DNA of 64,000 bases from Pseudomonadota bacterium. GTDB lineage: Bacteria; Pseudomonadota; Alphaproteobacteria; Sphingomonadales; Sphingomonadaceae. The stretch is from contig JAZKCH010000015.1 in the NCBI GenBank assembly GCA_040388215.1, positions 17,771-81,770 of the forward strand, given 5' to 3'. Made by a program: the position numbers and the translations under genes. Positions 14,362 through 30,285 of the stretch are shown here, piece after piece. The notes under the pieces are model-generated. The model ran no database searches, had not been told where the DNA came from, and saw only the letters and a program-made list of their open reading frames with translations. How positions within the stretch are numbered: position 1 is the stretch's first letter; each line of letters opens with the position of its first letter.

Positions 14362-14377
14362 TCGTTCGGCGGCAGAT

Positions 14378-14413: not shown

Positions 14414-14421
14414 GTGTGCGG

Positions 14422-16134
14422 TCAGACCGCGATGATCGCTGCGTCGGCGTCCCCGTCCAGCAGCAGGTGGAGCAGGCCCGGCGCCGGGCGGGCGATCGCA
14501 TGGATGCCCAGTGCCTCGAGTGCGGGTGTCGAGGCGCGGTCGACATCCTTCAAGCGGATCCGCAGGCGGGTGCCATGCTGGCTTGCCGCCTCCAGATTGT
14601 CCGCGCCGCCGAGTGCGGCGACGGTGGCGGGGGTCAGCCGGATGTCGTTGGTGGCGACCGGTGCCGGCTCTGCGGTCGGGGGTGTCGCCTCGTTCGGCGC
14701 GGCGATCGCGTCGCGGATTTCGACCGCGACCGAATCGGCAATCGGACCGAGCACGATCTGCAGCGCGTTATCCGAGGGGCGGATCAGGCCGCGTGCGCCG
14801 AGTGCCTTCAGGCGCGCTTCGTCGACGCGCTTCTGGTTCACGACGATAAGGCGCAGGCGGGTCGTGCACGCGCCAACGCTGGTGAGGTTCGCCGCGCCGC
14901 CGAGCGCTTCGGCAAACGCGGCGCCGCGCTCGCTCTTGGCGACGGTTGCCGCGGCGACGGGTGCATCGCGCTCGCGGCCGGGGGTGGGCAAGTCGAGGCG
15001 CTTGATGACGGTGCGGAACAGGACGTAGTAGATCGCTGCATACGCGAGACCGACCGGGAGCAGGAGCAGCGGCTTGGTCGCCTTGCCGTAGTTCAGCACG
15101 TAATCGAACAGCCCGGCGGAGAAGCCGAAGCCCAATTTCACGCCGAGCGCATCCATCAGCGCCATCGACACGCCGGTCAGCACCGCGTGGATCGCGTAGA
15201 GCACCGGCGCGAGGAACATGAAGCTGAACTCGATCGGCTCGGTCACGCCGGTCAGCATCGAGGTTAGCGCGAGGCTGAGCAGCATGCCGCCGACCGCCTT
15301 GCGACGCTCGGGCAACGCGGTGTGGTACATCGCGAGGCAGGCGGCGGGCAGGCCGAACATCATCACCGGGAAGAACCCGGCCATGAACGCGCCCGCGGTC
15401 GGATCGCCTGCGAAGAAGCGCCGCAGATCGCCCGTGGTGCCCTGGTAATCGCCGGCGACGAACCAGACGATGTTGTTGAGCAGATGGTGCAGCCCAGTGA
15501 CGAGCAACAGGCGGTTGAGCAGGCCGAACGCGAACAGGCCGAACCCGCCTGCGCCGCTGATGCCGTAGCTGAGGCCATCGATACCCGTGCTGAGTGCGCC
15601 GAAGCCGAGGCCGACGACCAGCCCGAGCACGAGGCCTGCGACGCCGCTGACGATCGGCACGAACCGGCGCCCGCCGAAGAAGGCGAGATATTCGGGCAGC
15701 GCGATCGCGGAGAAGCGGTTGTAGAAACTGCCGCCGATCAGCCCCGACAGAATGCCGATCGGTACGTCGAGTCGGGCGATCGCCTTGGCCTTCCACGCGG
15801 CGGTGGCGAGCGCGATCGTGTCGCCGGTGAAACCTTTGAGCGCGTCGGCGGGGACGGTCATCAGCGCCTGCGCACCCTGCGTGGTGACGAGGTAGCAGAC
15901 CACGCCGGCGAGACACGCCGCGCCGTTGCCGTCGCGCGCGAACCCGGTCGCGACGCCGATCGCGAACAACAGGCCGAGATGCGAGAAGATCGCGTCGCCC
16001 GCTGCGCCGAGCACCGCGATGTCGAGCATGTCGGGCTGGCCGAGGCGCAGCAGGAGGCCGGCGACGGGGAGCACCGCGATCGGCAGCATGAGTGCGCGGC
16101 CGAGCGGCTGGAGGGCTTCGAGCAGCGACTTCAT
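14422..16134 (-). CDS. nagE: PTS N-acetylglucosamine-specific EIICB with an extra C-terminal EIIB-like domain
   Basis: LGRALMLPIAVLP, TGLHHLLN and GVTEPIEF (EIIC); ACTTRLR (EIIB, Cys423); second LGGADN...QHGTRLR domain. Confidence 0.92.
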   Translation of the reverse strand: MKSLLEALQPLGRALMLPIAVLPVAGLLLRLGQPDMLDIAVLGAAGDAIFSHLGLLFAIGVATGFARDGNGAACLAGVVCYLVTTQGAQALMTVPADALKGFTGDTIALATAAWKAKAIARLDVPIGILSGLIGGSFYNRFSAIALPEYLAFFGGRRFVPIVSGVAGLVLGLVVGLGFGALSTGIDGLSYGISGAGGFGLFAFGLLNRLLLVTGLHHLLNNIVWFVAGDYQGTTGDLRRFFAGDPTAGAFMAGFFPVMMFGLPAACLAMYHTALPERRKAVGGMLLSLALTSMLTGVTEPIEFSFMFLAPVLYAIHAVLTGVSMALMDALGVKLGFGFSAGLFDYVLNYGKATKPLLLLPVGLAYAAIYYVLFRTVIKRLDLPTPGRERDAPVAAATVAKSERGAAFAEALGGAANLTSVGACTTRLRLIVVNQKRVDEARLKALGARGLIRPSDNALQIVLGPIADSVAVEIRDAIAAPNEATPPTAEPAPVATNDIRLTPATVAALGGADNLEAASQHGTRLRIRLKDVDRASTPALEALGIHAIARPAPGLLHLLLDGDADAAIIAV

Positions 16135-18737
16135 GGGCGGAAACTCCGGGCGAGCGTTCGCACGTCCGCGGCTGAGATGCAGTTCATCGCGGCGGCGGCA
16201 TGCGCCCTACACGCGTCGATCGTAAGCGTCGCGACTAGCGCCTTGATCTCGGGCACGAGCGCGGGCGCGGACGAGAGTTCGGTGACGCCGAGGCCGATCA
16301 GGATCGGTACGGCGAGCGGATCGGAGGCGAGGCCGCCGCATACGCCGGTCCATTTGCCGTGGACCGCGCCGCCCTCGCAGGTGCGCGCGATCAGGCGGAG
16401 GACGGCGGGGTGGAGCCCGTCGAGGTCGCTGGCGACCGCCGGATTGCCGCGGTCCATCGCGAGCGCATATTGCGTCAGGTCGTTGGTGCCGATCGATAGG
16501 AAGTCGGCTTCGCTTGCCAGCAGGTCTGCGGTGATCGCGGCGGCGGGCGTCTCGATCATGATGCCGAGCGCGACATGTTCCGTGTGCTCGGTCGCGGCAG
16601 CGGCCGCGTCGAGCGCGGCGCGGACCGCGCGGAGTTCGGCGAGGCTCGCGATCATCGGCACCATGATGCGGCACTGGCCTGCGGGGCGGACCGCGAGGAT
16701 CGCACGCAGTTGTGCGTCGAGCATTTCGGGATGGGCTAGGCCGACGCGGATGCCGCGCAGGCCGAGCGCCGGGTTCTCTTCCGCGGCGATCGGGAGGTAG
16801 GGGGCGGGCTTGTCGCCGCCGATGTCGAGCAGGCGGACGATCAGCGGGCGGCCGTCGAGCGTGTCGGCGATGCGCTGGTAATCTGCGGTCTGTTCCTCGA
16901 CGCTGGGCGCGCTGTCGCGTTCGAGGAACAGGAATTCGGTGCGAAGTAGCCCGCAGCCCTCGGCGCCGTTACGGACCGCGGCCTCGGCATCGTCGGCAGA
17001 CCCGAGATTGGCGAAGGCTTCGATCCGGACGCCGTCCTGCGTGCGGCATTCGCGCGCGGCGTTGGCGAGCGCGGCGCGGCGGCGTTCGGTCTGCGCGTCG
17101 AACGCGGTTTGCGCGGTCGCCTGTGTTTCGGCATCGGGCGCGACGTGGAGCAGGCCCGCGCCGGCGTCGAGGATCAGCGGCGTGCCCGCGGCGATCTCGG
17201 CGAGGGCTGGGCCGACTGCGACGAGAGCGGGCAGGCCCATCGTCGCGGCGAGGATCGCGACATGCGAGGTGGGGCCACCGCGCTCGACGCAGAAGCCGAC
17301 GATCGAGGCTGTATCTAGGCCGAGCAGATGCGAGGGGAGCAGGTCATCCGCCAGCAGGATCGTGCCGGGTGGGAAGCTCAAGCGCTCGTCGAGGTCTTCG
17401 CCCGCGAGCGCGCGCAGGACCTGGCGTTCGAGGTCGAGCATGTCGTCGGCGCGTTCGGCGAGGCGGGCGTCGCCGGTGGCGTGAAGGGCGTCTGCCTGCG
17501 CACGGATCGCGGTGCGCCACGCATAGGCGGCGCTCTCGCCTTGGGTGATCGCTGCGTGCGCGGCGTCGGTGAGGGTCGGGTCGTCGAGCAGGGCGGCATG
17601 CGCGGACAGGATTGCGCGTTCGGCGCCGGTCGCGGTTGCCGATTTGGTGGCGAGGCGGTCTGTGACCGTAGCGAGCGCGGTGTCGAGTGCGGTGCGTTCG
17701 GTGGTTGCGCCCGAGCCTTCGCGGGTCACGGCGATCTCGGCGAGGCGGAAGAGTCCGGCCTGGCCGATCGCGATTCCCGGAGAGGCGGTGACGCCGGGCA
17801 GGCGGCCGTCAGCGGGGAGGGTGGTGGCTTTAGCGGCATCGCCCTTCTGTTCCCCCGCGGAGGCGGGGGCCCAGGACCCCGCGGCGCCATCGTTCTTGGC
17901 TCCTGGGCCCCCGCCTTCGCGGGGGAAAACGGAAGTGGACGGTGCTACTGCCGGGGGCGTGGTAGCACCGGACCCGGCCTTCTCACCCATGCCGCCGAGG
18001 ATCAGGTCGCCTATCGCCGCGAGCGCGTCGGTGGCATCTGGGCCGGTGGCGGCGAGCGTGATCTCGTCGCCGAGCTTTACGCCCAGCGCCATCAGCGCGA
18101 CCGGGCTGCGGACGTTACCGTCGCGCTCGTCCTTCGTGATCTTCACGTCGGACACGAACTTCCGCGCGGTCTCGCCGATGCGGGCTGCTGGGCGGGCGTG
18201 AATCCCGTGGACCAGCGGCACGACGATCGTGCGGCGGACGGTATCGCCCTCGACGATTGCCACGTCGGCGGCATCGACGCGCGGTTCGAGCGTCATCATC
18301 GCCTCGCCGACGCCGACCAGCTTGCCGGTCTCGCGGCGGACGATGGTGAAGTGCTCGGGGTTGGTGACGATCACCGGCGTGATGACCGCGCGCGCCTCGC
18401 AGACCAGCAGGTCGAGATCGAAGCGGATCAGCGGATCGAGCCGCTGGACGCTCGCGCCCTCGGTTACGCAAGGGGTGAACCCGCGGCCGCCGAGCGCCAC
18501 CGTGTCGAGCCCGATATGCATCAGGATCTCGGCGCCTTCGGGCGTGCGTAGCGTGATCGCGTGGCCGCTGGCGTGGACGCTGAGCACGACTGCGTCGCAC
18601 GGTGCGTGCAGGCAGTCGCCGGTCGGATCGACGGCGATCCCGTCGCCCATCATCCGTTCGGCGAAGACCGGGTCTGGGACCGCCTCGAGCGGCGATGCCC
18701 AGCCCTGGAGGGGCGACGTCAGGATGATCGGCTTCAT
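16131..18737 (-). CDS. nagF: Multiphosphoryl transfer protein EIIA-HPr-EI (NagF/PtsP)
   Basis: LMHIGLDTV (EIIA), GIHARPA (HPr), GPTSHVAIL, GLLRTEFLF and SIGTNDLTQY (EI). Confidence 0.92.
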   Translation of the reverse strand: MKPIILTSPLQGWASPLEAVPDPVFAERMMGDGIAVDPTGDCLHAPCDAVVLSVHASGHAITLRTPEGAEILMHIGLDTVALGGRGFTPCVTEGASVQRLDPLIRFDLDLLVCEARAVITPVIVTNPEHFTIVRRETGKLVGVGEAMMTLEPRVDAADVAIVEGDTVRRTIVVPLVHGIHARPAARIGETARKFVSDVKITKDERDGNVRSPVALMALGVKLGDEITLAATGPDATDALAAIGDLILGGMGEKAGSGATTPPAVAPSTSVFPREGGGPGAKNDGAAGSWAPASAGEQKGDAAKATTLPADGRLPGVTASPGIAIGQAGLFRLAEIAVTREGSGATTERTALDTALATVTDRLATKSATATGAERAILSAHAALLDDPTLTDAAHAAITQGESAAYAWRTAIRAQADALHATGDARLAERADDMLDLERQVLRALAGEDLDERLSFPPGTILLADDLLPSHLLGLDTASIVGFCVERGGPTSHVAILAATMGLPALVAVGPALAEIAAGTPLILDAGAGLLHVAPDAETQATAQTAFDAQTERRRAALANAARECRTQDGVRIEAFANLGSADDAEAAVRNGAEGCGLLRTEFLFLERDSAPSVEEQTADYQRIADTLDGRPLIVRLLDIGGDKPAPYLPIAAEENPALGLRGIRVGLAHPEMLDAQLRAILAVRPAGQCRIMVPMIASLAELRAVRAALDAAAAATEHTEHVALGIMIETPAAAITADLLASEADFLSIGTNDLTQYALAMDRGNPAVASDLDGLHPAVLRLIARTCEGGAVHGKWTGVCGGLASDPLAVPILIGLGVTELSSAPALVPEIKALVATLTIDACRAHAAAAMNCISAADVRTLARSFRP
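17850..17927. repeat. REP-type inverted doublet inserted in frame in nagF (78 bp, 26 codons)
   Basis: TTCCCCCGCGGAGGCGGGGGCCCAGGA-N24-TCCTGGGCCCCCGCCTTCGCGGGGGAA (26/27 inverted repeat). 17848-17874 matches the intergenic repeat arm at 51518-51544 at 24/27. Confidence 0.88.
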
Positions 18738-18740
18738 GGA

Positions 18741-19892
18741 CTAAATTCCGTCTGCGATCTTGAGGCCACCGATCCAGGTGCCGGCGGGCCTGAGGTCGGC
18801 GGTCAGCGCCACCCAGTCGGCGCGCAGGCCGGGGGCTAGCGTTCCACGTTCGTGTGCGAAGCCGAGGAACGCGGCGGGGTTGGTCGCCGCCATCGCTGCT
18901 GCGGTCGGCACGTCGGCGTGCGTCCGCGCGACGAAATTGCGGACCGCGCCGGCCATGTCGAGGTCGGAACCGGCGAGCGTGCCGTCCTCGCCGAAGCACT
19001 TGCCGTCCTCGACATGGATCAGGCGCCCCTGAAGGCGGAAGTCCTTGTCGACCGCACCGACCGACGGCATCGCGTCGCTGACCAGCATCAGCCGGTCATG
19101 CGGACGTGCGTTGAGCGCGAGCCGAAGCGCGGCGTCGTGGACGTGCAGGCCGTCGGCGATCAGTCCGCAATAGACGTGACGATCGTCGAGCGCCGCACCG
19201 ACCACGCCGGGCGCGCGGTGGAGCAGCGGCGACATCGCGTTGAACAGATGCGTGATCCCGCTGAGCCCTGCACCGACCGCATCGATGATCGTCTCATAGT
19301 CCGCATCGGTATGGCCTGCGCTGACGATCACGCCGCCGGCGACCAGCCGCGCGATCGACGCCGCATCGGTCAGTTCGGGGGCGAGCGTCACCATCACGCG
19401 GCCCTTGCGCGGGCGGATCAACAACTCGATCATCGCATCGTCGAGCAGCCGGAACTTGGCGGGGTCGTGGATGCCCTTGCGCGACGGGTTGATCCACGGC
19501 CCTTCGATGTGCGCACCGACCACGCCGGGAACGCCAGCCTCGATCGCGGCGTCCATCGCGTCGAGCGTCGCCGCGATCACGTCGGGCGTGTCGCTGATCA
19601 GCGTCGGCATGAACGCGGTCGTGCCATAGGGCGCATGCGCCGCACCGATCGCGGCGATGCCCTCGACGGTCGGCTGGTCGTTGAGCAACACGCCGCCGCC
19701 GCCGTTGACCTGCGTATCGATGAAGCCGGGAACGAGCCAGCCGTTCTGGAGGTCGATCGCGTCCGACGGCGTACCGTCGAGTGCGGTTATCGACACGATC
19801 CGGCCGCCCTCGACCGTGATCGTCGCGCCGGTCAGCAGGGTGTCGGCGGTGACGATCGTGCCGTTTACGAAATGCATCTGCAGCGAACTCAT
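18741..19892 (-). CDS. nagA: N-acetylglucosamine-6-phosphate deacetylase
   Basis: PGFIDTQVNG, HIEGPW, SAGHT, THLFNAM, LIADGLHV and LAGSDL motifs. Confidence 0.95.
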   Translation of the reverse strand: MSSLQMHFVNGTIVTADTLLTGATITVEGGRIVSITALDGTPSDAIDLQNGWLVPGFIDTQVNGGGGVLLNDQPTVEGIAAIGAAHAPYGTTAFMPTLISDTPDVIAATLDAMDAAIEAGVPGVVGAHIEGPWINPSRKGIHDPAKFRLLDDAMIELLIRPRKGRVMVTLAPELTDAASIARLVAGGVIVSAGHTDADYETIIDAVGAGLSGITHLFNAMSPLLHRAPGVVGAALDDRHVYCGLIADGLHVHDAALRLALNARPHDRLMLVSDAMPSVGAVDKDFRLQGRLIHVEDGKCFGEDGTLAGSDLDMAGAVRNFVARTHADVPTAAAMAATNPAAFLGFAHERGTLAPGLRADWVALTADLRPAGTWIGGLKIADGI

Positions 19893-20944
19893 ACCGTCTT
19901 CGTGACCTTGCTGAGGTGGAGCGGCGCGTCGGGGTTGAGCCCGCGGCGCAGCGAGAGCGCGTTGGCCATTCGGTAGAAGCTTTGGATCATCAGGATCGGC
20001 TCGATCGCCGGATGCGCGGTGAACGCGGCGGGATCTGTTTCACCGTTCGCCTTCGCATCGGCGAGACATACGCGTGCGCCGCGTGCGGCAAACTCGGTTG
20101 CGGCCTCCCGCACGCCATCGCCGGCCGTATCGGAAGTCGCGAACGCGATTACCGGGAAGCCGTCGTTGACGATCGCCATCGGCCCGTGGCGGACCTCGGC
20201 GGCGCTGAACGCCTCGGCATGGAGCGCACAGGTTTCCTTGAGCTTCAATGCCGCTTCCTGCGCGATGCCGTAGCCATAGCCGCGACCGATCACGAACAGG
20301 TTGTTCGCATCGGCCAAGGCATCGACCACCGACGTCCAGTTCGCACCGAACGCGAGCGTCAGCATGTCGGGGAGCGTGTCGATCGCCTTGGTCAGTGCGT
20401 CGTTCTGCGACCACGCCGCGGTCAGCGCCGCGAACGCCGCGAGCGCGCAGATATAGGATTTGGTCGCCGCGACCGAGCGCTCTGGCCCGGCCTTCAGCGC
20501 GATCATCGTGTCGGCCATCTCGGCGAGCGGCGAACTCTCGTCGTTGACGAACGCGACGACATGCGCGCCCGCCGCCTGATAGGCGGACACGGTCGAAAGC
20601 AGGTCGGGGCTGCGGCCGCTCTGCGATACCGCGATCACGAGCGCGGTGCCGGGCGCCATCGGTGCGGCATAGACCGACGATACCGACGGCGCGGCCGATG
20701 CGACCGGCACGCCGAGCAGCGTCTCTATCAGGTATTTGCCATAGGTCGCTGCATGATCGGACGAGCCGCGCGCGCAGGTCACGACCACGGCAGGTGGCGC
20801 CGCGCGGAGGCGCTCACCGAGTGCGGCCAGCGCCTCGCGGTTGGCGGCGAGCAGCCGCGCGACCGCGTCGGCAGCTTCGGCGGCTTCGCTATACATCAGC
20901 GTCGGCGGCGACTCTATGGTCGCAGTATCGATAGTCTCGGTCAC
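19889..20944 (-). CDS. SIS-domain glucosamine-6-phosphate deaminase (NagB-II type)
   Basis: ARGSSDHA, SQSGRSPD, VAATKSY, EAALKLKE and EVRHGP motifs, GlmS-like isomerase half without a glutaminase domain; GTG start; ATGA overlap with nagA. Confidence 0.88.
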   Translation of the reverse strand: MTETIDTATIESPPTLMYSEAAEAADAVARLLAANREALAALGERLRAAPPAVVVTCARGSSDHAATYGKYLIETLLGVPVASAAPSVSSVYAAPMAPGTALVIAVSQSGRSPDLLSTVSAYQAAGAHVVAFVNDESSPLAEMADTMIALKAGPERSVAATKSYICALAAFAALTAAWSQNDALTKAIDTLPDMLTLAFGANWTSVVDALADANNLFVIGRGYGYGIAQEAALKLKETCALHAEAFSAAEVRHGPMAIVNDGFPVIAFATSDTAGDGVREAATEFAARGARVCLADAKANGETDPAAFTAHPAIEPILMIQSFYRMANALSLRRGLNPDAPLHLSKVTKTV

Positions 20945-20978
20945 GGTAAGCCCCCCGGCCGGCGCCCGTGCGCCAGCG

Positions 20979-21716
20979 TCAGATGTCGTTCAGTTCGGCG
21001 ACGAGGTCGTACGCGTCGCCACGATAGTAGGATTGGGTGAATTCGGCGGCCCGGCCATCGCGCAGGAAACCACGGCGCTCGATGAACAGGCCGGCATGGC
21101 CTGCATCGACGCCGAGCATCTTGGCATGCTCCGGGCTGAAATGAACCGCGCGCAGGCGTTGCAACGCGCGGACCGGACGGTTGCCCGCCGCTTCGAGCGC
21201 TTCGTACAACGAGTCCTGGACGGCATCGATCGTCGGCAGGCAGTATCCGGCGATCGTCGAATATTCGAGTGCCATCGGGGTGTCGTCAGCGTAGCGAATG
21301 CGCTGGAACCGGTACACCGCCGAGCCAGGCGACAGCCCGAGCGACAGCGATTCCTCGGGCGTCACCATACCGATCGTCCGGCTGACCCATGCGCTGCTCG
21401 GCGTGCGACCGCGCGACTGCATATCCTCCGAGAAGGACGACAGTTTCGAGAAGCTCTTCTCGACGCGAGTGGCGACGAACGTCCCCGCGCCGCGGCGGCG
21501 GGTGAGCAGGCCTTCCTCCACCAGCCCGCCGATCGCTTTTCGCACGGTGATGCGCGACACGTCGTATTCGATCGCAAGATCGCGTTCGGCCGGCAGCGCA
21601 TCGTCCTTGGCCAGCACGTTGCGGTTGATCGCATCGCGGATCAACTGCTGAAGCTGGACGTACAACGGCGCGGGATTGCCATCCCGGAACCTGCCAATGC
21701 TCGTTGAAAAGGACAT
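20979..21716 (-). CDS. GntR/HutC-family (UTRA) regulator, NagQ-like
   Basis: PLYVQL...LPAERDLA...VSRITVRKA...GAGTFV HTH plus UTRA domain; heads the nag genes. Confidence 0.9.
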   Translation of the reverse strand: MSFSTSIGRFRDGNPAPLYVQLQQLIRDAINRNVLAKDDALPAERDLAIEYDVSRITVRKAIGGLVEEGLLTRRRGAGTFVATRVEKSFSKLSSFSEDMQSRGRTPSSAWVSRTIGMVTPEESLSLGLSPGSAVYRFQRIRYADDTPMALEYSTIAGYCLPTIDAVQDSLYEALEAAGNRPVRALQRLRAVHFSPEHAKMLGVDAGHAGLFIERRGFLRDGRAAEFTQSYYRGDAYDLVAELNDI

Positions 21717-21803
21717 GAAGGCGACTTTCGATGATGCCGGAGCGGGCCTCGAAACGAGAATGACCCGGCAACCGATCTTGGATACGTTATGTATTGGTAT
21801 TGT

Positions 21804-22580
21804 TCAAGCGGCTTGACCGACTGTGTTTCTGAGTACGGCCTTGAGATTTCGTACGCGCGTAACATCGGTATTGCGACGCGCGGCCGCAGCAAAGCCGAAT
21901 TGACGCTGGCGCGCAGTCGTTGCGGACGTGCCGTCTTCGTTGCTAGATGCGACGAGACTGCCGCAGGACGCGTGGACTTCCCCGATGCCCGTCGCGAGGA
22001 TTTCCGAGACGTTGCCAGCATCGATGCCGCTACCGGCGAGGATCACGATGCGGCCCGCGGCACGACGATGGAGCGTGTCCAGCATCGCGAGCCCGTCGAC
22101 CGCCTTGGGTTCGCCGCCTGAGGTCAGGACGCGGTCGAAACCGAGTGCGATCGCGGCGTCGAGTGCGGCCGGCATGTCATCGCACAGGTCGATCGCACGG
22201 TGCAGCGTCAGCGATAGTGGCACGCTACGCGCCGTACTCAAGGTGCGGGCATGGGTGACGAGCGCCGCGAGTAGATCGGTGTCGAGGCTGTGGTCAGCGC
22301 GGCTGGCGCCGATCACGACGCCCGCAAGGCCTGCGTCGCTGGCGGCGGTCATGTCCGCGGCAATCATGGCCGCCTCGCGCGCGTTATAGTGGAAGCCGCC
22401 TTCGCGGGGTCTGGCGAGCAGATGGACGGGAATCGAAATGGCCGTCGCCGCGGCGATCAGAGAGGGCGAGGGGGTCAGTCCACCTAAAGCCAGAGCCGCG
22501 CACAACTCAATCCGGTCGCCGCCACCCGCGACGGCCGAATCGAGCCCCGCGATATCGTCGACACAGATTTCTAAGGTCAT
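21804..22580 (-). CDS. cutC: CutC-family (PF03932) TIM-barrel protein
   Basis: Likely start MTLEICVDD at 22580; RIELC, GGLTPS, RPREGGF, HRAID, RVLTSG and ILAGSGI motifs. Confidence 0.9.
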   Translation of the reverse strand: MTLEICVDDIAGLDSAVAGGGDRIELCAALALGGLTPSPSLIAAATAISIPVHLLARPREGGFHYNAREAAMIAADMTAASDAGLAGVVIGASRADHSLDTDLLAALVTHARTLSTARSVPLSLTLHRAIDLCDDMPAALDAAIALGFDRVLTSGGEPKAVDGLAMLDTLHRRAAGRIVILAGSGIDAGNVSEILATGIGEVHASCGSLVASSNEDGTSATTARQRQFGFAAAARRNTDVTRVRNLKAVLRNTVGQAA

Positions 22581-22596
22581 CAGGCAGCCTTCAGTG

Positions 22597-22882
22597 AATG
22601 GTAATAATATTACGTTTGGCCGATCGAATCGCATGCTTCAATCCCCAAAAATATGGAGACCGGTAAGAAAATGGTATTAGAGCTCGTTCGGCGCTTGGAG
22701 CGGGCAGGCGCCTGTCTGAGGGCTCTAAGGCCTTGTAAGGGCCTATTATACAACGAGAAAACCAGAGGATGGGCGGCTGACCGAATTGGTAACCAAACTG
22801 TAATTTCCGATGGATTCCGAAATCAAATTGGTTATACGGTAGCCCTACCAAGTCGCTTAGATAGTAACCAAAACAGTACCAA
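22597..22882. promoter_or_regulatory. Divergent cutC/TBDR promoter region with multiple TGGT/ACCA GntR(HutC)-type half-sites
   Basis: AT-rich region with AATGGTAAT (~22597), ATGGTATT (22671), TTGGTAACCAA (22786-22796), TTGGTTATAC (22828), GGTAG-CC-CTACC (22838-22849), TAACCAA and TACCAA (~22865-22882). Confidence 0.5.
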
Positions 22883-22953
22883 GCGACGGGTGATCAAAGG
22901 GGCGCGGCATGCGTCGGGGTGGCGCTGCGGCGCTGAGGGAAGGGGCTTTGACG

Positions 22954-25743
22954 ATGGTTTTCCGTAAGCAGATTTTGTTGGCTTCGAGCGCGGCCGTGTT
23001 CGTCGCCGCAACGCCGAGCGTATTCGCGCAGGTTGTCGCACCATCGGCTGAGGCTGCCGCAGCGCCGCAAACTGCCACGCCGGCCGCTCCCGTCGCCGAC
23101 GAAACCGGCGATGACATCGTCGTTACCGGTATCCGGGGCAGTTTGCGTAGTGCGATTGCGGTTAAGCGTCAGGCCAATGCGATCGTCGACGTCATCAGTG
23201 CCGAGGCGATCGGCAAGTTCCCGGACCGCAACGTCGCCGAATCCCTCTCGCACGTTCCCGGCGTCAGCATCGATCGTCGCTTCGGCGAGGGCGAGAAGGT
23301 TGCGATCCATGGTACCGATCCGGCGCTCAACCGCATGCTGCTCGACGGCCACGCGGTCGCCTCGGCCGACTGGGGCGGCAACGACAACGACCCGACCAGC
23401 CGTACCTTCAACTATTCGCTGCTCGCCCCCGAGCTCGTCGAGCGCCTCGAAGTCTACAAGTCGCCTGAGCCGCGGATCGAGGAAGGCAGCATCGGCGGCA
23501 CCGTCATCGTCCGTACGCGCCGTCCGCTCGACACGCCCGCCAACTCGATCTTCGCATCGGGTGGCTATTCGTACAACGACCGTGCCGACAAGGGTAACGT
23601 CCGCGCTTCGGGTCTGTACAGCTGGCACAACGAGGGCGGCACGTTCGGCGTGCTTGGCGCCGTCACCTATGACAAGCAGAGCCTGACCCGCGCAGGCGTC
23701 GAATTCTTCGGCTTCGAGAATGCCAGCGACCGCTTCTTCCAGAAGGATACGAACGGAGTGCTCGTCCGCGACGCGAGCGGGCAGCCGGTCTTGAAAAATA
23801 CCGCTGCGACCGTCACCGGCGGCACGCGCCAGGACCTTGCCAACGCGGTATCGCCGTTCGGCATCAACTACGCGTATTTCACGCAGGAGCGTAAGCGCAT
23901 CAGCTATGTCGGCACGGTCCAGGCCAAGCCGACCGACGACATCACGCTGACGCTGAACGGCCTGCATATCGACGGCAACTACAACAACAGCAGCCAGTCG
24001 ATGTACGTGATCCCCGGCGCGTGGAGCGGCGACGTTCTCCAGTCGGCGACGGTCGCGAACGGCGTCGTCACCAATGCCAGCTTCGGCGCGGCCTCGGCGA
24101 ACAGCCAGAGTGCGCAGCTCGATCTGCTGATCCGCAAGACCAAGCTGACCACCGACAACCTCAACTTCGTCGGCGAATGGGAAGGTCCGGGCGGCTCGAG
24201 CGTGTCGGCGACGGCCGGCTGGAGCAAGGCGATCGGCGGGCGCAATCCCGAATATCTGCTCGATGTGCGGACCGACCTTCCGTACAGCTACGGCTTCACC
24301 TCCGACAGCGCGAACGTCGACTATGTCGGCGACCTGACCAACCCCGCGAACTATCGCCGCAGCAACGGCGCGCAGCCCCAGACGATCGATGGCGCCCCCG
24401 TCATCGTCAACGGTACGCAGCTTAACGCGGCGCGCGCGGGTGGTATCGATTTCTCCAAGACGATCGATCGCGATTACTACGCAGGCTATGACGCGGTCAT
24501 CCCGTTCGAGGCGGGGCCGTTCAAGGAAATCCGCATCGGCGGCAAGTTCACCGATCACCGCAATCGCCTGAACGCGAGCGGCTTCAACAACTACTCGACC
24601 TCGAACTACACGCTGGCGAGCCTCGGCGTCGACACGATGACGACGCCGAACGGCACGTTCGACGGCACCGGCGGCACCGGCAACGCGACCAAGTACATCA
24701 ACCTGTCGCAGCAGACGGTCATCGACATCCTCGCCAATTCGGTGAACGTCGCCGTCGCCAAGCCGACCGCGTCGTACATCGTCGACGAGACGGTCGCGGC
24801 GAACTACGTCCAGCTGAACTTCGATCAGAGCGGCTTCCGCGGCAACATCGGTGGTCGTCTGGTCTATACCAAGAACGTGTCGAACTATGCCGATCAGGTC
24901 TCCGGCGAAGAAGGCACCCTGCCAACGATCGTGCCGCAGCGTGTTCAGAACGACTATCTGAAGTTTCTCCCAAGCCTGAACGTTGCCTATGAGGCGGGCG
25001 CCCACCTGATCTTTCGCGGCAGCGCCGCCAAAGTCATTGCTCGCCCGCGCTACGAACAGCTCGGTGGGTCGGTCGGTCGCAACGACATCACGCTGGATGC
25101 AAGCGGCGGCAACCCGAACCTGAAGCCGTACCAGTCGACCAACTACGAACTGTCCGCAGAATATTATCCGCGCGAAGGTACACTGTTGTCGCTCGAACTG
25201 TTCCGTCGCGAGGTGAAGGATTACATCCTTAATCGGCAGACCCGCCAGACGTTCTTCAACGAGCTTAACCAGGTCAACGCATCCTATCTCGTGTCGCAGC
25301 CGATTAATGGTGGCGACGCGAACGTCAACGGTGCGCTGGTCTCCGCGCAAGGTGAAATCTGGCACGGCTTCGGGCTGCAGGCGAACTATTCGTATGCCGA
25401 AAGCTCGACTGACGAAGGGCTGAACCTGCCTTATCTGTCAAAGCACACCGTCAACGTGATCCCGTATTACGAGAACGGGCCGTTCCAGGCGCGACTGAGC
25501 TATAACTATCGGTCGTCGTATTTCCGCCAAATCGGTCGCCTGAACGCGATCGACATGGTCGCGCCGTACAGCCAGCTCGATTTCTCGGCAGGCTTCAACC
25601 TGACCAAGGCGGTGACGCTGACGGTCAACGCGCAGAACCTGCTCGACTCGACCTATACGCAGTATAGCGGCTCGCGCGATCGGCCGACGGCGTTCTACAA
25701 GAACGGCCGCACGTACGTCGCGTCGGTCTCGTTCAGGATGTAA
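22954..25743 (+). CDS. TonB-dependent receptor (glycan/oligosaccharide type)
   Basis: Sec signal; DIVVTGIR; plug motif DVISAEAIGKFPDRNVAESLSHVPGV; GNPNLKPY; NAQNLLD...GRTYVASVSF terminus. Confidence 0.95.
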   Translation: MVFRKQILLASSAAVFVAATPSVFAQVVAPSAEAAAAPQTATPAAPVADETGDDIVVTGIRGSLRSAIAVKRQANAIVDVISAEAIGKFPDRNVAESLSHVPGVSIDRRFGEGEKVAIHGTDPALNRMLLDGHAVASADWGGNDNDPTSRTFNYSLLAPELVERLEVYKSPEPRIEEGSIGGTVIVRTRRPLDTPANSIFASGGYSYNDRADKGNVRASGLYSWHNEGGTFGVLGAVTYDKQSLTRAGVEFFGFENASDRFFQKDTNGVLVRDASGQPVLKNTAATVTGGTRQDLANAVSPFGINYAYFTQERKRISYVGTVQAKPTDDITLTLNGLHIDGNYNNSSQSMYVIPGAWSGDVLQSATVANGVVTNASFGAASANSQSAQLDLLIRKTKLTTDNLNFVGEWEGPGGSSVSATAGWSKAIGGRNPEYLLDVRTDLPYSYGFTSDSANVDYVGDLTNPANYRRSNGAQPQTIDGAPVIVNGTQLNAARAGGIDFSKTIDRDYYAGYDAVIPFEAGPFKEIRIGGKFTDHRNRLNASGFNNYSTSNYTLASLGVDTMTTPNGTFDGTGGTGNATKYINLSQQTVIDILANSVNVAVAKPTASYIVDETVAANYVQLNFDQSGFRGNIGGRLVYTKNVSNYADQVSGEEGTLPTIVPQRVQNDYLKFLPSLNVAYEAGAHLIFRGSAAKVIARPRYEQLGGSVGRNDITLDASGGNPNLKPYQSTNYELSAEYYPREGTLLSLELFRREVKDYILNRQTRQTFFNELNQVNASYLVSQPINGGDANVNGALVSAQGEIWHGFGLQANYSYAESSTDEGLNLPYLSKHTVNVIPYYENGPFQARLSYNYRSSYFRQIGRLNAIDMVAPYSQLDFSAGFNLTKAVTLTVNAQNLLDSTYTQYSGSRDRPTAFYKNGRTYVASVSFRM

Positions 25744-25746
25744 CAC

Positions 25747-25780: not shown

Positions 25781-25813
25781 GACGCTCTCTATGACGGAAG
25801 CACACCGCCACGC

Positions 25814-28000
25814 ATGATATCGGGACGGATCAGGACAGGGTTGCAGCGGATCGGGCAGTGGGGTGCCGGGTTCGCTTCGGCCGTCCTGATGCTGGTGCCG
25901 CTATTGGTGCCGCTGCCCGCCGCGGCAGAGCGGATCGACCTCGATGCGGGGTGGAGCTTCTGGTTGGCGAAAGATGCGCCGGCTGATCCGGCGTGGCTGA
26001 AAGCCGATCCGGTGGGGGCGCAGAGCGTTGTGGTTCCGCACAGCTGGCCGCTGTCGCGTGGTGCGGCCGCCGAGGGCGTCGGCTGGTATGCGCGGACGCT
26101 GGTGGTGCCGGAGGCGATCGTCGGCAAGCATCTCGAACTGCATTTCGATGCAGTGTTCTATGCAGCGCGCGTTTGGGTGAACGGGACGCTCGTCGGTAGC
26201 CACGAGGGCGGGCATACCGCGTTCGACCTCGACGTCTCGAAAATGCTGAAGCTGGGCGCAAATCGGATCGTCGTCTCGGCCGATGACCGGCCGGGGTTTG
26301 CGACGATTCCGGGATACGCGATGCGTCTCCAGGGTTCGGGGAACGTCTGGTACGACTGGTGGCATAGCGGCGGGATCACGCGCGACGTGTCGCTGCGGAT
26401 CGCTGAGGGTGGATTGATCCGCCGCCAGCGGATTCGCCAGGTCCTGCGCGCCGATAGCGCGACGGTCACCAGCGGTGTCGCGATCGAAAATATCGACGCG
26501 AAGGCGCATACCTACGGACTGACGACGATCGCGATCGATCCAGACGGCCGCGAGGTTGCGCGGACATCCAGGAGCGTGATGGTGGCTGCGTCTTCGGCGG
26601 CGACGCCCGATGCTGCGCTGACGATTACCAAGCCGCAGCGGTGGCAGATCGGTGCGGGGAAGCTGTATCGGATCGTCGCCGAGTTGCGCGACGAGAAGGG
26701 CGTGGTGGTCGACCGGCGCGAGGATACGATAGGCCTGCGCACGCTCGCGCTCCGCGACCGGCGGCTGTACGTCAACGACGTCGCGGTGCGCCTTACCGGC
26801 GTGACGCGGCATGAGGATTCGCCGTGGGAGGGTGCCGCCGAAACGCGCGGGACGATCCTGCACGACATGCGCGATCTCGCCGCGCTGCACGTCACGCTGA
26901 CGCGGCCGGTGCATTACCCGCAGCCGCAGAGCGTGTTCGATGCGGCGGACCGCGCGGGGATACTGCTGATCCCCGAGATCCCGATCTGGCAGATGACCGC
27001 GGCGCAATTGGGTGATCCGCGGCTGCTGGTCCGCGCCAAGGCGATGATGGCCGAGATGATCGCCGAGAGCGGCAATCATCCGAGCGTGCTAGCGTGGAGC
27101 GTGATGAACGAGAGCGAGGCCGCGACGCCGCAGGGGCTCGCGTTCGTGAAGGCCATGAAGGCGCATATCAACGCGATCGATCCCGGCCGGTTCGTGACCT
27201 TCGCGGACTCCGAGATCGCGATCCGGCCGGTCCGCGTGCCCGCACTGGTCGAGGCCGATTTCGTCATGGCCAACGCCTATTTCGGGACATGGAGCGGCGC
27301 GGCGTCGGGCGTCGGTCCGTGGCTCGACGCGTTCGGCAAGGCGTATCCCGACCGGATGCTGGTCATCTCCGAATTCGGCTGGCCTGGGCCGTTCTCGAAG
27401 GACAGCGCGAGCGCGGACGTGGCGCGCACCGAAAACCTCAAGGACCAGCTCGCGGCGTTCGCGACGCGGCCTTGGGTCGGTGGTGCGATCTTCTGGAGCT
27501 ATTCGGATTACCGTTCGAACAAGAACCTCTTCGCGGGGCTTGCCGATGGCTATGTCGATCATGGTCTGGTCGATCCCGATCGCCAGCGCCGGCCGAGCTA
27601 TTTCGCCTGGGAGGCCGCCAATCGCGCGGTCTCCGCGACCGTCGACCTGACGATGGCGGGCGAGATCCCGACCGGCTTCACCGCGACCGTTGCGGGGGCT
27701 GCGAGGGACGCGTTGCCGTCCTATCCGCTGATCGGTGCGCGGCTACACTGGCGCGCGATGGGCGGCGATCGCGTGTTGCTCGGCGAGGGTGAGGAGGCGC
27801 TGCCGGTGATCGCGCCGGGTGGCACGGCGAAGGTCTCCGCATCGTGGGCGGGTCGTCTTTCGCCCGTCACGGTTACGGTCGATATCCTGACCGCGGAAGG
27901 CGCGCGCGCCGGCGGCGTCGTCCGCGATTACGAACCGTTCAAGGCGGGGTCGGCCGCCTATCCGCCCGATCCTGCGCAATTGCCGAAGGCTCCTTCATGA
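25814..28000 (+). CDS. GH2 glycoside hydrolase, beta-galactosidase/glucuronidase-like subgroup
   Basis: LHFDAV, GVTRHED, RPVHYP, WSVMNE (acid/base) and ISEFG (nucleophile). The exact start is uncertain. Confidence 0.85.
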   Translation: MISGRIRTGLQRIGQWGAGFASAVLMLVPLLVPLPAAAERIDLDAGWSFWLAKDAPADPAWLKADPVGAQSVVVPHSWPLSRGAAAEGVGWYARTLVVPEAIVGKHLELHFDAVFYAARVWVNGTLVGSHEGGHTAFDLDVSKMLKLGANRIVVSADDRPGFATIPGYAMRLQGSGNVWYDWWHSGGITRDVSLRIAEGGLIRRQRIRQVLRADSATVTSGVAIENIDAKAHTYGLTTIAIDPDGREVARTSRSVMVAASSAATPDAALTITKPQRWQIGAGKLYRIVAELRDEKGVVVDRREDTIGLRTLALRDRRLYVNDVAVRLTGVTRHEDSPWEGAAETRGTILHDMRDLAALHVTLTRPVHYPQPQSVFDAADRAGILLIPEIPIWQMTAAQLGDPRLLVRAKAMMAEMIAESGNHPSVLAWSVMNESEAATPQGLAFVKAMKAHINAIDPGRFVTFADSEIAIRPVRVPALVEADFVMANAYFGTWSGAASGVGPWLDAFGKAYPDRMLVISEFGWPGPFSKDSASADVARTENLKDQLAAFATRPWVGGAIFWSYSDYRSNKNLFAGLADGYVDHGLVDPDRQRRPSYFAWEAANRAVSATVDLTMAGEIPTGFTATVAGAARDALPSYPLIGARLHWRAMGGDRVLLGEGEEALPVIAPGGTAKVSASWAGRLSPVTVTVDILTAEGARAGGVVRDYEPFKAGSAAYPPDPAQLPKAPS

Positions 28001-30285
28001 TCCGTTTCCGCCCGCTCGCATTCGCGCTGTTGATGACGTCCACCGCAGCGCTGGCCGAGGGCCCGAAGCTGATCCCGATGCCGGCCTCGGTCGAGGCGAA
28101 GGCGGGGACGCTGACGATCGGCGAGGGGACGGGGATCGTCGCCGGCGATCCGGGAGCGAAGACGGCGGCGCGGTTGCTGGTGCAGCAGGTGAAGGTCGTG
28201 CGCGGGCTGACGCTGGCGGGCGACGCGGGCACTGGGCCGATCCGGTTCGTGCGGGATGCAGGCGTTGCGGGTGACGAAGCGTATGTGCTGACCGTCGACA
28301 CGAACGGCGTGACGATCGCAGCGAGCGGCGACGCGGGGCTCGTCCACGGCGCGATGACGCTGGCGCAGTTGCTCAGCCCCGACGCGGCGATCGGCAAGCC
28401 GGTCGTGCTGGCGGCGATGACGATCCGCGACGCACCGCGCTTCAAGTGGCGCGGGCTGATGATCGATCCGGCGCGGCATTTCGTGCCGATGCCGACGTTG
28501 TACGCGATGGTCGATCAGCTCGCGGCGCAGAAGATGAACGTGCTGCATCTGCACCTGACCGACGATCAGGGCTGGCGGATGGAGATCAAGCGCTATCCCG
28601 ATCTGACGCGTATCGGCGCTTGGCGCACGCCGCCGTCGAGCGGTGGCGCGCCGGGGCCGAAGGTCGGCGGGGTCTATACGCAGGCCGAACTGAAGGCGCT
28701 GGTCGCCTATGCGAAGGACCGCGCGATCACGGTGGTCCCCGAGATCGACCTGCCGGGGCATGCGCAGGCGGCGGTGGCGTCGTATCCGGCGGAGGTCGGC
28801 GTGCTCGGCGATCGTCCCGCGGTCAGCCACGACTGGGGCGTGAATCCGTGGCTGTTCAGCCCGGAGGATCGCAGCATGACCTTCATCAAGCATGTCCTCG
28901 ACGAGCTGATGGACGTGTTTCCGTCGCAGTTCATCCATCTCGGCGGCGACGAGGCGGTCAAGGACCAGTGGGAGCGGTCGCCCGCGGTGCAGGCCAAGAT
29001 GAAGGCGCTCGGGCTGAAGACCGAGATGCAGATGCAGAGCTGGATGATCGACCAGCTCGGCGAGTATCTGGCGAAGCACGGCCGCCGCATGATCGGCTGG
29101 GACGAAATTCTCGAAGGGGGCCTGCCGCCGTCGGCGTCGGTGATGTCGTGGCGTGGCGAAAAGGGCGCGGTCGAGGCCGCCAATCAGGGCCATGACGTGG
29201 TGCTGAGCCCCGCGCCGACGCTGTATCTGGACAGCCTGCAGAGTACGCGTGGCGACGAGCCGGCGGGGCGAATCTCGGGCGGCGATGCGATCGTGACGCT
29301 TGCCGATCTCTACAAATACGAGCCCGAGCCGAAGGGCCTTGCGCCCGACAAGGCGCAGCATGTGCTGGGCGCGCAAATCAACGCGTTCAGCGAGTATTTC
29401 GTGACGCCAGAACAGTTGCAGCATGCGACCTTCCCGCGGCTGTCGGCGCTGGCCGAGCGGACATGGTCGCCGAAGAGTACGCAGGACTATGCAGGCTTCG
29501 TCGCGCGGCTGGAGCCTCAGATGGGGCGGTATGCGCGGGCCGGAATCGCGGCGGCGGACAGCGCGTTCGCGGTCGACTTCGCGGTGCAGGGCACGCGCGG
29601 CGATGCGCTGCGGGGGCGCAAGGTGCCGGTCACGCTGGCGACGCAGGCGGGCTATGGCACGATCCGCTACACGCTCGACGGCAAGGCGCCGACCGCGCGG
29701 TCGAAGGCCTATGCGTCGCCGCTGTCGCTCAAGCCTGGCGTGGTCGTTCGCGCGGCTGCCTTTACCAACGACGGGCGTCCGACTGCGGTGCCGCGGCTGT
29801 TCGAGACGAGCCGTGCCGCGCTGTTGCGCCGGTCGAATTCGGAGATGGTCGCGTGCCCGGGCGGGTCGCTCAACCTGCGCGTACCGCTGACCGCAGAGGC
29901 GACCGCGCTGGCACCGGTGTACAACATCAACATTTTCGACTCGTGCACGATGTATCCGGCCGCGCCGCTCGACGTGGCGCGGGGCTTCAGCGTCGATGTC
30001 GCGCGGCTCGCCCGGCATTACGGGCTGGCGCACGATGCGAGCAAGCTGGTGCCGCATTATGCGGTGACCACCTACGGCGAACTCGTCGTGCGCGCGGGCG
30101 GCTGCAAGGGGACGATCGCGGCGACCTTCCCCCTGCCCGACCCGGCGACGAGCCCCAACCGCATGACGTTCCGCGGCAAACTTCCCGAGGGGAAGGGTGA
30201 CGCCGACCTTTGCCTGCAATTTACCCAGTCGCTCGAGTCTCCGATCTATGCGGTGGACTCGATGCAGCTGACGGAGACGAACTGA
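27997..30285 (+). CDS. GH20 beta-N-acetylhexosaminidase
   Basis: ATGA overlap at 27997; Sec signal; DAPRFKWRGLMID, HLHLTDDQGWR and HLGGDE catalytic motif; chitobiase/FN3-like C-terminus. Confidence 0.95.
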   Translation: MIRFRPLAFALLMTSTAALAEGPKLIPMPASVEAKAGTLTIGEGTGIVAGDPGAKTAARLLVQQVKVVRGLTLAGDAGTGPIRFVRDAGVAGDEAYVLTVDTNGVTIAASGDAGLVHGAMTLAQLLSPDAAIGKPVVLAAMTIRDAPRFKWRGLMIDPARHFVPMPTLYAMVDQLAAQKMNVLHLHLTDDQGWRMEIKRYPDLTRIGAWRTPPSSGGAPGPKVGGVYTQAELKALVAYAKDRAITVVPEIDLPGHAQAAVASYPAEVGVLGDRPAVSHDWGVNPWLFSPEDRSMTFIKHVLDELMDVFPSQFIHLGGDEAVKDQWERSPAVQAKMKALGLKTEMQMQSWMIDQLGEYLAKHGRRMIGWDEILEGGLPPSASVMSWRGEKGAVEAANQGHDVVLSPAPTLYLDSLQSTRGDEPAGRISGGDAIVTLADLYKYEPEPKGLAPDKAQHVLGAQINAFSEYFVTPEQLQHATFPRLSALAERTWSPKSTQDYAGFVARLEPQMGRYARAGIAAADSAFAVDFAVQGTRGDALRGRKVPVTLATQAGYGTIRYTLDGKAPTARSKAYASPLSLKPGVVVRAAAFTNDGRPTAVPRLFETSRAALLRRSNSEMVACPGGSLNLRVPLTAEATALAPVYNINIFDSCTMYPAAPLDVARGFSVDVARLARHYGLAHDASKLVPHYAVTTYGELVVRAGGCKGTIAATFPLPDPATSPNRMTFRGKLPEGKGDADLCLQFTQSLESPIYAVDSMQLTETN

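Follow-up and report, generated by a model that had tools for sequence, protein, structure and literature searches.

Organization of the cutC locus

A gene for a CutC-family protein lies among genes for N-acetylglucosamine (GlcNAc) metabolism and N-glycan degradation in a genome assembly from the Sphingomonadaceae (GCA_040388215.1). We analyzed a stretch of 64,000 nucleotides around this gene (contig JAZKCH010000015.1, positions 17,771 to 81,770; referred to here as the window) and compared it with cutC loci from other bacteria. CutC proteins are widespread, occurring from Escherichia coli to humans. Several crystal structures are available, and the name of the family rests on a phenotype that has since been reassigned to a small RNA. 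We know of no CutC-family member with a demonstrated catalytic function. From the genes around cutC in the window and elsewhere, we infer that the window CutC is very probably a cytoplasmic enzyme of GlcNAc and N-glycan-core salvage.

The cutC gene (21804..22580, minus strand) codes for 258 amino acids plus a stop codon. The product is a PF03932 TIM-barrel protein, cytoplasmic and without a signal peptide, that covers positions 1-200 of the 202-position family profile (207.2 bits against a cut-off of 23.3, E = 2.3e-61). The ATG at 22580 is the likely start codon, as the N-termini of homologs align there and a GAAGG sequence lies 8-12 nt upstream. The same two features leave a longer open reading frame (ORF) from an upstream ATG (22634) without support. 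The closest relatives of the protein come from Sphingomonas (56-91% identity), and the GC content of the window is 62-72%.

Downstream of cutC on the minus strand are genes for amino-sugar uptake and breakdown. nagQ (20979..21716) codes for a GntR/HutC-type repressor with a UTRA domain (Pfam GntR and UTRA; HutC-like subfamily in NCBIfam). It is followed by nagB-II (19889..20944), which codes for a SIS-type glucosamine-6-phosphate deaminase (two Pfam SIS domains; NCBIfam NagB_SO3506, E = 5e-104), and by nagA (18741..19892), which codes for a GlcNAc-6-phosphate deacetylase (Pfam Amidohydro_1) and keeps its position in all related loci. The array ends with nagF (16131..18737), an EIIA-HPr-EI fusion of the phosphotransferase system (PTS), and nagE (14422..16134), a PTS EIICB permease, both identified with Pfam. 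On the plus strand, a TonB-dependent receptor (TBDR) gene (22909..25743; Pfam Plug and TonB_dep_Rec) opens a divergent operon with an N-glycan-type glycosidase array (25814..43854). Pfam assigns its products to the glycoside hydrolase (GH) families GH2, GH20, GH2 again (two beta-mannosidase-like proteins), GH3 with PA14, GH125, GH92, and GH29 with F5/8-C. This predicted set matches the enzymes needed for dismantling N-glycans and resembles the Xanthomonas nix cluster (PMC4173781). Pfam assignments and gene order agree with an earlier reading of the window made from its sequence alone (the sequence-only reading), which had placed cutC first in a cutC-nagQ-nagB-II-nagA-nagF-nagE array divergent from the TBDR-glycosidase operon.

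The divergent arrangement of the TBDR-glycosidase operon and cutC-nagQ-nagB-nagA-nagF-nagE is also present in Sphingomonas sp. PP-CE-3A-406, 4RDLI-65, Leaf38, and Leaf357, whose CutC proteins are 64-77% identical to that of the window. Stakelama pacifica has the order cutC-nagB-nagA-nagF-nagE with unrelated genes upstream. In Sphingomonas sp. PAMC26645, a TBDR gene is divergent from an Asparaginase_2 gene, which is followed by cutC (4-bp overlap) and then by nagB-nagA-nagF-nagE.

Operator-like repeats before and after cutC

The control region shared by cutC and the TBDR gene (22581..22908; 328 bp, 49% GC) contains conserved tandem repeats. In an alignment with four other Sphingomonas species, TGGTA-type blocks are conserved and the rest of the spacer has diverged. 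The NagQ consensus is reportedly TGGTATT. We scanned the whole window for the pattern TGGTWHY-N4-TGGTWHY with up to two mismatches and found 8 matches where 3.06 were expected. Six of the eight fall within 21675-22881, the 1.2 kb around cutC. On the TBDR side of the control region, the NagQ-box-like tandem repeat TGGTACT-GTTT-TGGTTAC (22864..22881, minus strand) has no mismatches and is kept in four of five species. The repeat on the cutC side, CGGTAAG-AAAA-TGGTATT (22661..22678, plus strand), lies 80 nt upstream of cutC within a block, AATACCAtTTCTTaC, that is also kept in four of five species. These arrays are in keeping with the published description of the NagQ operator motif as tandem repeats (PMC5343134). 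The sequence-only reading had described GntR-type half-sites in this promoter region; the sites are real, but their form is that of tandem TGGTA-type repeats.

A further match to the pattern, ACGTTATGTATTGGTATT (21784..21801, plus strand), lies in the 87-nt cutC-nagQ spacer, which is 81% identical across five species. A counterpart of this site is found just past cutC in Sphingomonas PAMC26645 (locus L004, 10800-10817) and in Stakelama, where nagB is the next gene after it. With operator-like sites before and after the gene, cutC is thus flanked on both sides by NagQ-like sites. Tandem-repeat operator-like sites in the cutC promoter region, conserved across species, would be expected of a NagQ-regulon member.

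cutC and nagQ lie on the same strand with no terminator-like site in the gap between them, and their order is kept in five species. The genes from cutC to nagE may form one transcript; the operator-like site in the cutC-nagQ gap is a caveat. Scans around cutC turned up neither a sigma-70 promoter nor a terminator. Directly upstream of the cutC start is a block of about 45 nt, running from GGGATTGAAGC to GCGATTCGATCGGCCAAACGTAATATTATTAC (22585..22640, minus strand), that is nearly identical in four of five Sphingomonas species. The block has no Rfam match, sigma-70 consensus, or TGGTA repeat, and it may serve as a promoter read by another sigma factor, as a second operator, or as a 5' leader element.

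Fold and conserved residues of CutC

The window CutC belongs to a known family with solved structures and is an ordinary member of it. Among PDB entries, its sequence matches human CUTC (3iwp, E = 2e-42) and Shigella CutC (1twd, E = 3e-30). An AlphaFold2 model (pLDDT 91.3, pTM 0.89) shows a (beta/alpha)8 barrel with a C-terminal helical extension like that of human CUTC. The first 19 Foldseek matches to this model are all CutC entries (query TM-score, TMq, 0.71-0.84; TM 0.82-0.84 for 3iwp and 1twd). The model superposes on CutC structures from human, Shigella, Streptococcus, and Bacillus, and the fold is the same as in the solved family members (E. coli/Shigella 1twd and 1x7i, human 3iwp, S. 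agalactiae 2bdq, B. anthracis 4r9x).

The window protein shares the Glu/Cys/Arg/His/Asp set of the CutC family. Fifteen residues are invariant in 44 diverse CutCs (E4, E25, C27, G34, P37, R57, G61, F63, G87, G91, R128, D131, L152, S154, and H203), and conservation in the same set reaches at least 90% at C6, R23, H127, G183, and G185. According to the DSSP strand assignment of the model, most of the conserved residues, and every charged or polar one among them, fall within a beta strand or directly after its end, on the C-terminal face of the barrel. This face is the substrate-binding side in TIM-barrel enzymes. The conserved face predicted by the model is the signature of an enzyme rather than of a chaperone.

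Glycine-rich loops follow beta-6 (LTSGG) and beta-7 (AGSG). The sequence-only reading had likened these loops to the phosphate-binding site of barrel enzymes. The motifs RVLTSGG and ILAGSGI are indeed present, but the fold search points only to generic phosphate-binding barrels, and the chemistry that the reading proposed from them, a sugar(-phosphate) isomerase, epimerase, or hydrolase, stays conjectural. The nearest non-CutC folds (TMq 0.46-0.67) are MfnB/MJ1099, PdxJ, 2-keto-3-deoxy-6-phosphogluconate aldolase, ribulose-phosphate epimerase, deoxyribose-phosphate aldolase, and the phosphoenolpyruvate mutase superfamily. Foldseek gave no informative functional neighbor past such barrels, and NanE was not among the top 50 hits. 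The modeled likeness is compatible with a phosphorylated substrate, not diagnostic of one.

Linkage of cutC to amino-sugar and glycoprotein genes

We surveyed the neighborhoods of cutC in two sets of 80 loci. The alphaproteobacterial set was obtained by scanning GTDB species genomes for the peptide GGADRIELC; it consists almost only of Rhizobiales and is taxonomically narrow. The Bacteroidota-like set was obtained from metagenomes by a scan seeded with Bacteroidota CutCs (median length 6 kb, GC 33-70%). ORFs were called in both sets, clustered, and compared with reference proteins.

In 53 of the 80 alphaproteobacterial loci, the gene immediately preceding cutC, in the same orientation, codes for a ROK kinase. 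The best NCBIfam match of these kinases is N-acetylglucosamine kinase, with a score below the cut-off. Within 5 kb of cutC, the set contains genes for ROK (56 loci), NagB-II (23), NagA (21), a BadF-type kinase (18), GH20 (12), and Asparaginase_2 (8), and 74 of the 80 loci have at least one amino-sugar or N-glycan family in this range. In the Bacteroidota-like set, cutC is immediately preceded by a glycosylasparaginase gene in the same orientation in 22 of 80 loci, often with the two genes overlapping by 4 bp, and 25 loci have such a gene within 5 kb. Other loci of this set have GH20 with GH92, GH2, or GH29 adjoining cutC. At least one amino-sugar or N-glycan family occurs within 5 kb in 37 of the 80, on contigs that are short. 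Since an asparaginase or GlcNAc-kinase gene is about one gene in thousands, these adjacency rates are far above chance.

Two gene orders recur within the Rhizobiales-type loci. In 18 of the 80 (among L007-L086), a GatA-like amidase of the amidase-signature family is encoded two genes upstream, giving the order amidase-ROK-CutC. In about 11 others, genes for GH20, an M81 (MlrC-like) peptidase, a major facilitator superfamily (MFS) transporter, and CutC occur in that order. These arrangements suggest that a GlcNAc-peptide or amide conjugate is taken up and trimmed.

Annotated PLSDB records provided further contexts. Glycosylasparaginase and cutC genes overlap, in that order, in a Microbulbifer record and in two Hymenobacter records, the latter with GH92, ROK, nagB, GH18, and SusC alongside. 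The Hymenobacter partner matches the characterized Flavobacterium glycosylasparaginase with E = 4e-111 and isoaspartyl peptidases with 3e-35, which identifies it as a true glycosylasparaginase. A Fulvitalea record has the order glycosylasparaginase-CutC-GH2-CBM9-GH92-GH20. In Asticcacaulis and Pseudoalteromonas, a TBDR gene is divergent from cutC, which is followed by a NagK_SO3507-like kinase gene. In Kozakia, genes for a NagC-like regulator, CutC, and GH20 are surrounded by ROK, MFS transporter, nagA, and nagB genes. Paracoccus cutC lies in an aga/nag-type amino-sugar locus beside genes for a tagatose-bisphosphate aldolase subunit, a SIS isomerase, and NagA. In Listeria monocytogenes (locus L093, 3929-8630), cutC follows genes for a GntR regulator, a Man-family PTS (IIA/IIB/IIC/IID), and a 234-aa single-SIS protein (NF002805); this PTS-SIS-CutC operon resembles fructoselysine/glucoselysine-type PTS-deglycase loci.

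A plasmid of Alkalihalophilus pseudofirmus carries genes for an asparaginase, a five-gene peptide ATP-binding cassette transporter, leucyl aminopeptidase, CutC, alpha-fucosidase, and ROK. We rejected this asparaginase (locus L096, 100-1092) as an Asparaginase_2 glycosylasparaginase; it belongs to the class 3 asparaginases of Rhizobium etli type (PDB 8cly, E = 1e-35). The locus loosely backs a glycopeptide context, and the class 3 asparaginase might be a non-orthologous replacement.

We used Pfam to survey gene fusions in the 150 best representatives at 50% identity. A fusion of ROK with CutC makes up a cluster of 41 members from Muribaculaceae and other Bacteroidales. Its occurrence on many contigs indicates that the fusion is real. 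Fusions of CutC with two SIS domains and of a Cof-type HAD domain with CutC were found once each. Long ORFs that span the glycosylasparaginase and cutC genes in high-GC loci proved to be out-of-frame artefacts, and no real fusion of these two proteins was seen.

A third singleton joined CutC to a Transglut_core domain (P0256). We rejected it as a fusion because it is likely a read-through of two adjacent genes, the second part of which opens with a lipoprotein signal. In L126 (ORF L126_9) and 10 further Bacteroidales-like metagenome loci (within L102-L181), cutC adjoins a gene for a lipoprotein of about 890 aa with a transglutaminase-like core and a GRCGEE motif. The best annotated PDB matches of this lipoprotein are a generic transglutaminase-like protease and then, weakly, peptide:N-glycanases (PNGases). 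The match of the P0256 part to 2f4m is weak (E = 0.0099) and was not used as evidence for a PNGase. If the lipoprotein were a PNGase, it would be a second glycosylamine-producing neighbor of CutC.

Overall, linkage of cutC to amino-sugar or glycopeptide genes recurs in about 11 orders from three phyla, with differing gene orders and transport systems. This recurrence is a better argument than the raw adjacency counts. The enrichment anticipated by the sequence-only reading for PF03932 neighborhoods was strongly positive in both censuses. The neighbors it had named were also found: glycosylasparaginase and N-glycan genes adjoin cutC in Bacteroidota (Hymenobacter, Fulvitalea, and Bacteroidota-like metagenome loci), and in Xanthomonas XAC3091 (cutC) is next to the asparaginase gene XAC3092, in or near the nix cluster (PMC6718126, PMC5700972). 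Its view of CutC as an enzyme of N-glycan catabolism needs to be widened: the linkage to GlcNAc and glycoprotein genes holds, but the association is broader than N-glycans. The most constant partners are a GlcNAc kinase or PTS, nagA/nagB, and glycosylasparaginase. CutC therefore very probably belongs at the cytoplasmic GlcNAc end of the pathway, beside the PTS, ROK kinase, or BadF-type kinase that would phosphorylate GlcNAc, rather than in glycan trimming.

Candidate reactions

The canonical route from kinase or PTS through NagA and NagB has no gap. Glycosylasparaginase releases the glycosylamine 1-amino-GlcNAc, and to our knowledge no enzyme has been described for the step that follows its release by glycosylasparaginase or PNGase. 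Because loss of ammonia from the glycosylamine is the sole unassigned step nearby, a glycosylamine hydrolase is the favored assignment, probably acting on the 6-phosphate in PTS and kinase contexts. The glycosylamine released by PNGase survives for tens of minutes at pH 7.5-8 until its ammonia is lost spontaneously (bioRxiv 10.1101/2022.12.22.521623). Without an enzyme, the amine would break down at neutral pH only by slow, spontaneous hydrolysis. Hydrolysis of 1-amino-GlcNAc, or possibly its 6-phosphate, is the reaction that we infer for CutC; we prefer it tentatively and regard it as possible rather than probable.

In the proposed pathway, the TBDR and periplasmic GH2, GH20, GH92, GH125, GH29, and GH3 enzymes would trim the glycan, and glycosylasparaginase, where present, would cleave GlcNAc-Asn. 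The GlcNAc-type product would enter through the NagE/NagF PTS as a 6-phosphate, which NagA and NagB-II would convert to fructose-6-phosphate. CutC would act between the release or uptake of the reducing-end GlcNAc and NagA, hydrolyzing 2-acetamido-2-deoxy-beta-D-glucosylamine, here probably as the 6-phosphate, to GlcNAc(-6-phosphate) and ammonium. The invariant Glu, His, and Asp residues, and possibly the invariant Cys, would supply acid-base catalysis.

Glycosylamine hydrolysis would explain the coupling of cutC to glycosylasparaginase genes, the adjacency and fusion to kinases, the cytoplasmic location, and the phosphate-barrel features of the model. Coupling to an enzyme that releases 1-amino-GlcNAc is seen in the 22 Bacteroidota-like loci and in the further records described above; the window shows no such coupling. 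Twin-arginine (Tat) signals are present on the coupled glycosylasparaginases of Sphingomonas PAMC26645, Hymenobacter, and Fulvitalea and CutC has none, so the coupled pair spans the membrane, which fits a CutC that acts on an imported product. The complete account, in which CutC is a NagQ-controlled TIM-barrel enzyme of GlcNAc salvage that hydrolyzes a glycosylamine and does not handle copper, falls somewhat short of an even chance in our estimation.

The kinase linkage can also be read in another way. CutC might be an anomerase or epimerase that accelerates ring opening of newly freed GlcNAc or of GlcNAc-6-phosphate, its conversion from the beta to the alpha anomer, or its epimerization at C2, for use by the kinase, NagA, or NagB. 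A GlcNAc kinase or PTS and nagA/nagB are the most constant partners of cutC whether or not an asparaginase is present, and such an activity accounts for loci that lack glycosylasparaginase. Phosphate-binding barrels near the CutC fold include ribulose-phosphate 3-epimerase, retaining GH20 enzymes and glycosylasparaginase release beta-configured products, and the ROK-CutC fusion presumably parallels NanK/NanE pairs. However, mutarotation of sugar phosphates is already fast, the close pairing and translational coupling with glycosylasparaginase genes seen in 22 of 80 loci would be left unexplained, no sialic-acid or N-acetylmannosamine genes were seen in the CutC loci, and NanE is outside the top Foldseek hits. 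We consider an anomerase or epimerase unlikely.

SIS proteins near cutC raise a different alternative, in which CutC carries out another step on an amino-sugar phosphate or glycoconjugate, such as deglycase- or lyase-type C-N cleavage of a phosphorylated sugar-amine (cf. FrlB, GfrF) or clearance of a side-product inhibitory to NagA or NagB. The Listeria operon with its Man-type PTS and single-SIS protein, the CutC-SIS(x2) fusion, the aga-like neighbors in Paracoccus, and the Rhizobiales loci with an upstream amidase or with M81 peptidase, GH20, and MFS transporter genes all favor such a step. This support is positional, and no one alternative substrate is common to all of the contexts; we judge this proposal improbable as well.

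SIS-type enzymes such as NagB-II, AgaS, and FrlB/GfrF cleave a C-N bond in phosphorylated amino sugars or sugar-amines. In several loci they adjoin CutC or are fused to it, but their fold differs, which makes them partners rather than relatives. NanE, NanM, and NanQ are small accessory amino-sugar enzymes encoded beside a ROK kinase, and NanE is a phosphate-binding TIM barrel. CutC has no detectable sequence relationship to these three proteins, and its loci lack sialic-acid genes. CutC is likewise unrelated in fold to glycosylasparaginase (Asparaginase_2, e.g. the Flavobacterium enzyme, PDB 1p4k/9gaa) and PNGase, although cutC genes show translational coupling to genes for bona fide glycosylasparaginases; CutC is cytoplasmic and its coupled glycosylasparaginases are Tat-exported.

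Evidence against salvage and the copper question

A number of observations weigh against a role in GlcNAc salvage or against glycosylamine hydrolysis in particular. No glycosylasparaginase, ROK kinase, or GH18 gene is present in the window, so the source of the glycosylamine must be assumed to lie elsewhere. The Stakelama and Kozakia loci also lack an adjacent glycosylasparaginase, and a general GlcNAc role fits them better. Glycosylamine hydrolysis alone leaves such loci, the window included, unexplained, and for them an anomerase, an epimerase, or another amino-sugar-phosphate reaction is an equally good explanation. Both census sets are phylogenetically clustered, and their counts exceed the number of independent events. 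Firmicute CutCs have replacements at R128 and S154, reading FHMAFD and LTHGG.

Some cutC genes lie outside any sugar locus. No sugar context was found around cutC in Enterococcus gallinarum and Cetobacterium, and E. coli cutC lies in a cutC-yecM operon without one (PMC4102768). In four gut Bacteroides-like loci (L126, L130, L131, L140), the genes around cutC encode an amino-acid antiporter, glutaminase, glutamate decarboxylase, and, next to cutC, a transglutaminase-like lipoprotein; this setting is one of acid resistance and ammonia release and not of sugars. In X. campestris, GlcNAc does not induce the asparaginase gene aspG (PMC4173781), whose counterpart neighbors cutC in X. citri. Sequencing runs flagged as possible RNA (X5-X8) were rejected as evidence of expression, as their 18-24 kb contigs of flat depth are genomic DNA. 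In full-text literature outside subscription-only sources, we found no biochemical or genetic test of a sugar-related function, and no such function, for any CutC. Finally, two reports support the copper label: human CUTC is reported to bind Cu(I) in vitro (Li 2010), and a cutC mutant of Xylella is reported to be sensitive to copper (Ge 2022).

These last reports, and the family name, speak for CutC as a cytoplasmic Cu(I)-binding or copper-homeostasis protein whose position in the nag locus is incidental or meets a metal need of its neighbors. The near-invariant C6 and C27, the proposed Cu(I) site of the family, are present in the window CutC; their position on the conserved face could explain adventitious Cu(I) binding. 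The copper phenotype of E. coli cutC is due to the small RNA MicL, as the sequence-only reading had stated, and the authors of that work called for re-examination of CutC function (PMC4102768). No MicL-like RNA was found by Rfam search of 20500-23500 at E values up to 1. The window CutC scores 152.8 bits against NCBIfam NF008603, the E. coli CutC equivalog, below the cut-off of 311, and is encoded in a nag operon instead of cutC-yecM. No specific copper genes (cop, cue, cus) were found in the window. The sole candidate is a generic RND/MFP/OMF efflux system (3490-9046), 13 kb from cutC, that scores below every NCBIfam cut-off and is nearer to multidrug pumps than to CusA/CzcA, so the earlier statement that the window lacks recognizable copper genes holds in essence. 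With the E. coli phenotype assigned to MicL and no MicL-like RNA or copper genes here, a copper role is unlikely. The amino-sugar linkage across about 11 orders with varied gene order and the existence of a kinase fusion also argue against it, and we regard copper handling as a very improbable function for this protein.

Relation to Xanthomonas and implications

We compared the window with the nag and nix genes of Xanthomonas (Boulanger 2014, PMC4173781; PMC6718126). Both have a TBDR with GH2/GH20/GH29/GH92/GH125/GH3-type glycosidases, NagQ-type regulation, nagA, and nagB-II, and Xanthomonas cutC lies beside an asparaginase gene near the cluster. Uptake differs: Xanthomonas uses NagP and NagK, whereas the window encodes the NagE/NagF PTS and lacks NagR. 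The window cutC heads the nag operon, whereas Xanthomonas cutC pairs with aspG, a gene that GlcNAc does not induce. The Xanthomonas papers treat cutC purely as a copper gene (PMC6718126, PMC5700972).

The nearness of cutC to Xanthomonas N-glycan genes has been noted in passing before. The breadth and closeness of the linkage to glycosylasparaginase, GlcNAc kinases, and nag genes appear to be new, as do the kinase fusion and a specific, testable reaction. The evidence assigns CutC to the salvage of amino sugars and N-glycan cores across many independent lineages, and the candidate substrates are a few purchasable compounds. The "copper homeostasis" labels carried by thousands of genes in sugar loci are probably misleading. 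We think it fairly unlikely, yet worth stating, that PF03932 is the first family to hydrolyze 1-amino-GlcNAc, free or 6-phosphorylated, from glycosylasparaginase or PNGase. If it is, CutC would supply an enzyme for a step of N-glycoprotein catabolism that is spontaneous in textbook accounts and would give a function to an orphan family kept from bacteria to humans, with cytosolic CUTC acting downstream of NGLY1 and endo-beta-N-acetylglucosaminidase (ENGase). Such a function would be relevant to plant-associated and gut bacteria living on host glycoproteins, and possibly to the NGLY1 and aspartylglucosaminidase pathways of humans.

Other features of the locus

The third-position GC of cutC (0.73) is the lowest in the cluster; nagQ, nagB, nagA, nagF, nagE, and the glycosidase genes range from 0.80 to 0.89. 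The low value may reflect weaker codon adaptation or a different history. Genes past 43.9 kb are unrelated to the cluster (NhaA, kdp, and osmoregulated periplasmic glucan synthesis). Contigs of the locus from runs X5-X8, corresponding to window positions 13500-31500, represent genomic DNA of this Sphingomonas in runs flagged as those of another organism, from a contaminant, an associate, or mislabeling, and depart from the window sequence around 30.0-31.4 kb. Several ORFs in the glycosidase operon overlap by 90-220 nt, such as those for GH2 (25814-28000) and GH20 (27844-30285), which implies that translation of some of these genes begins past the first start codon. The two tandem GH2 beta-mannosidase-like paralogs (30210-35569) share 49% identity.

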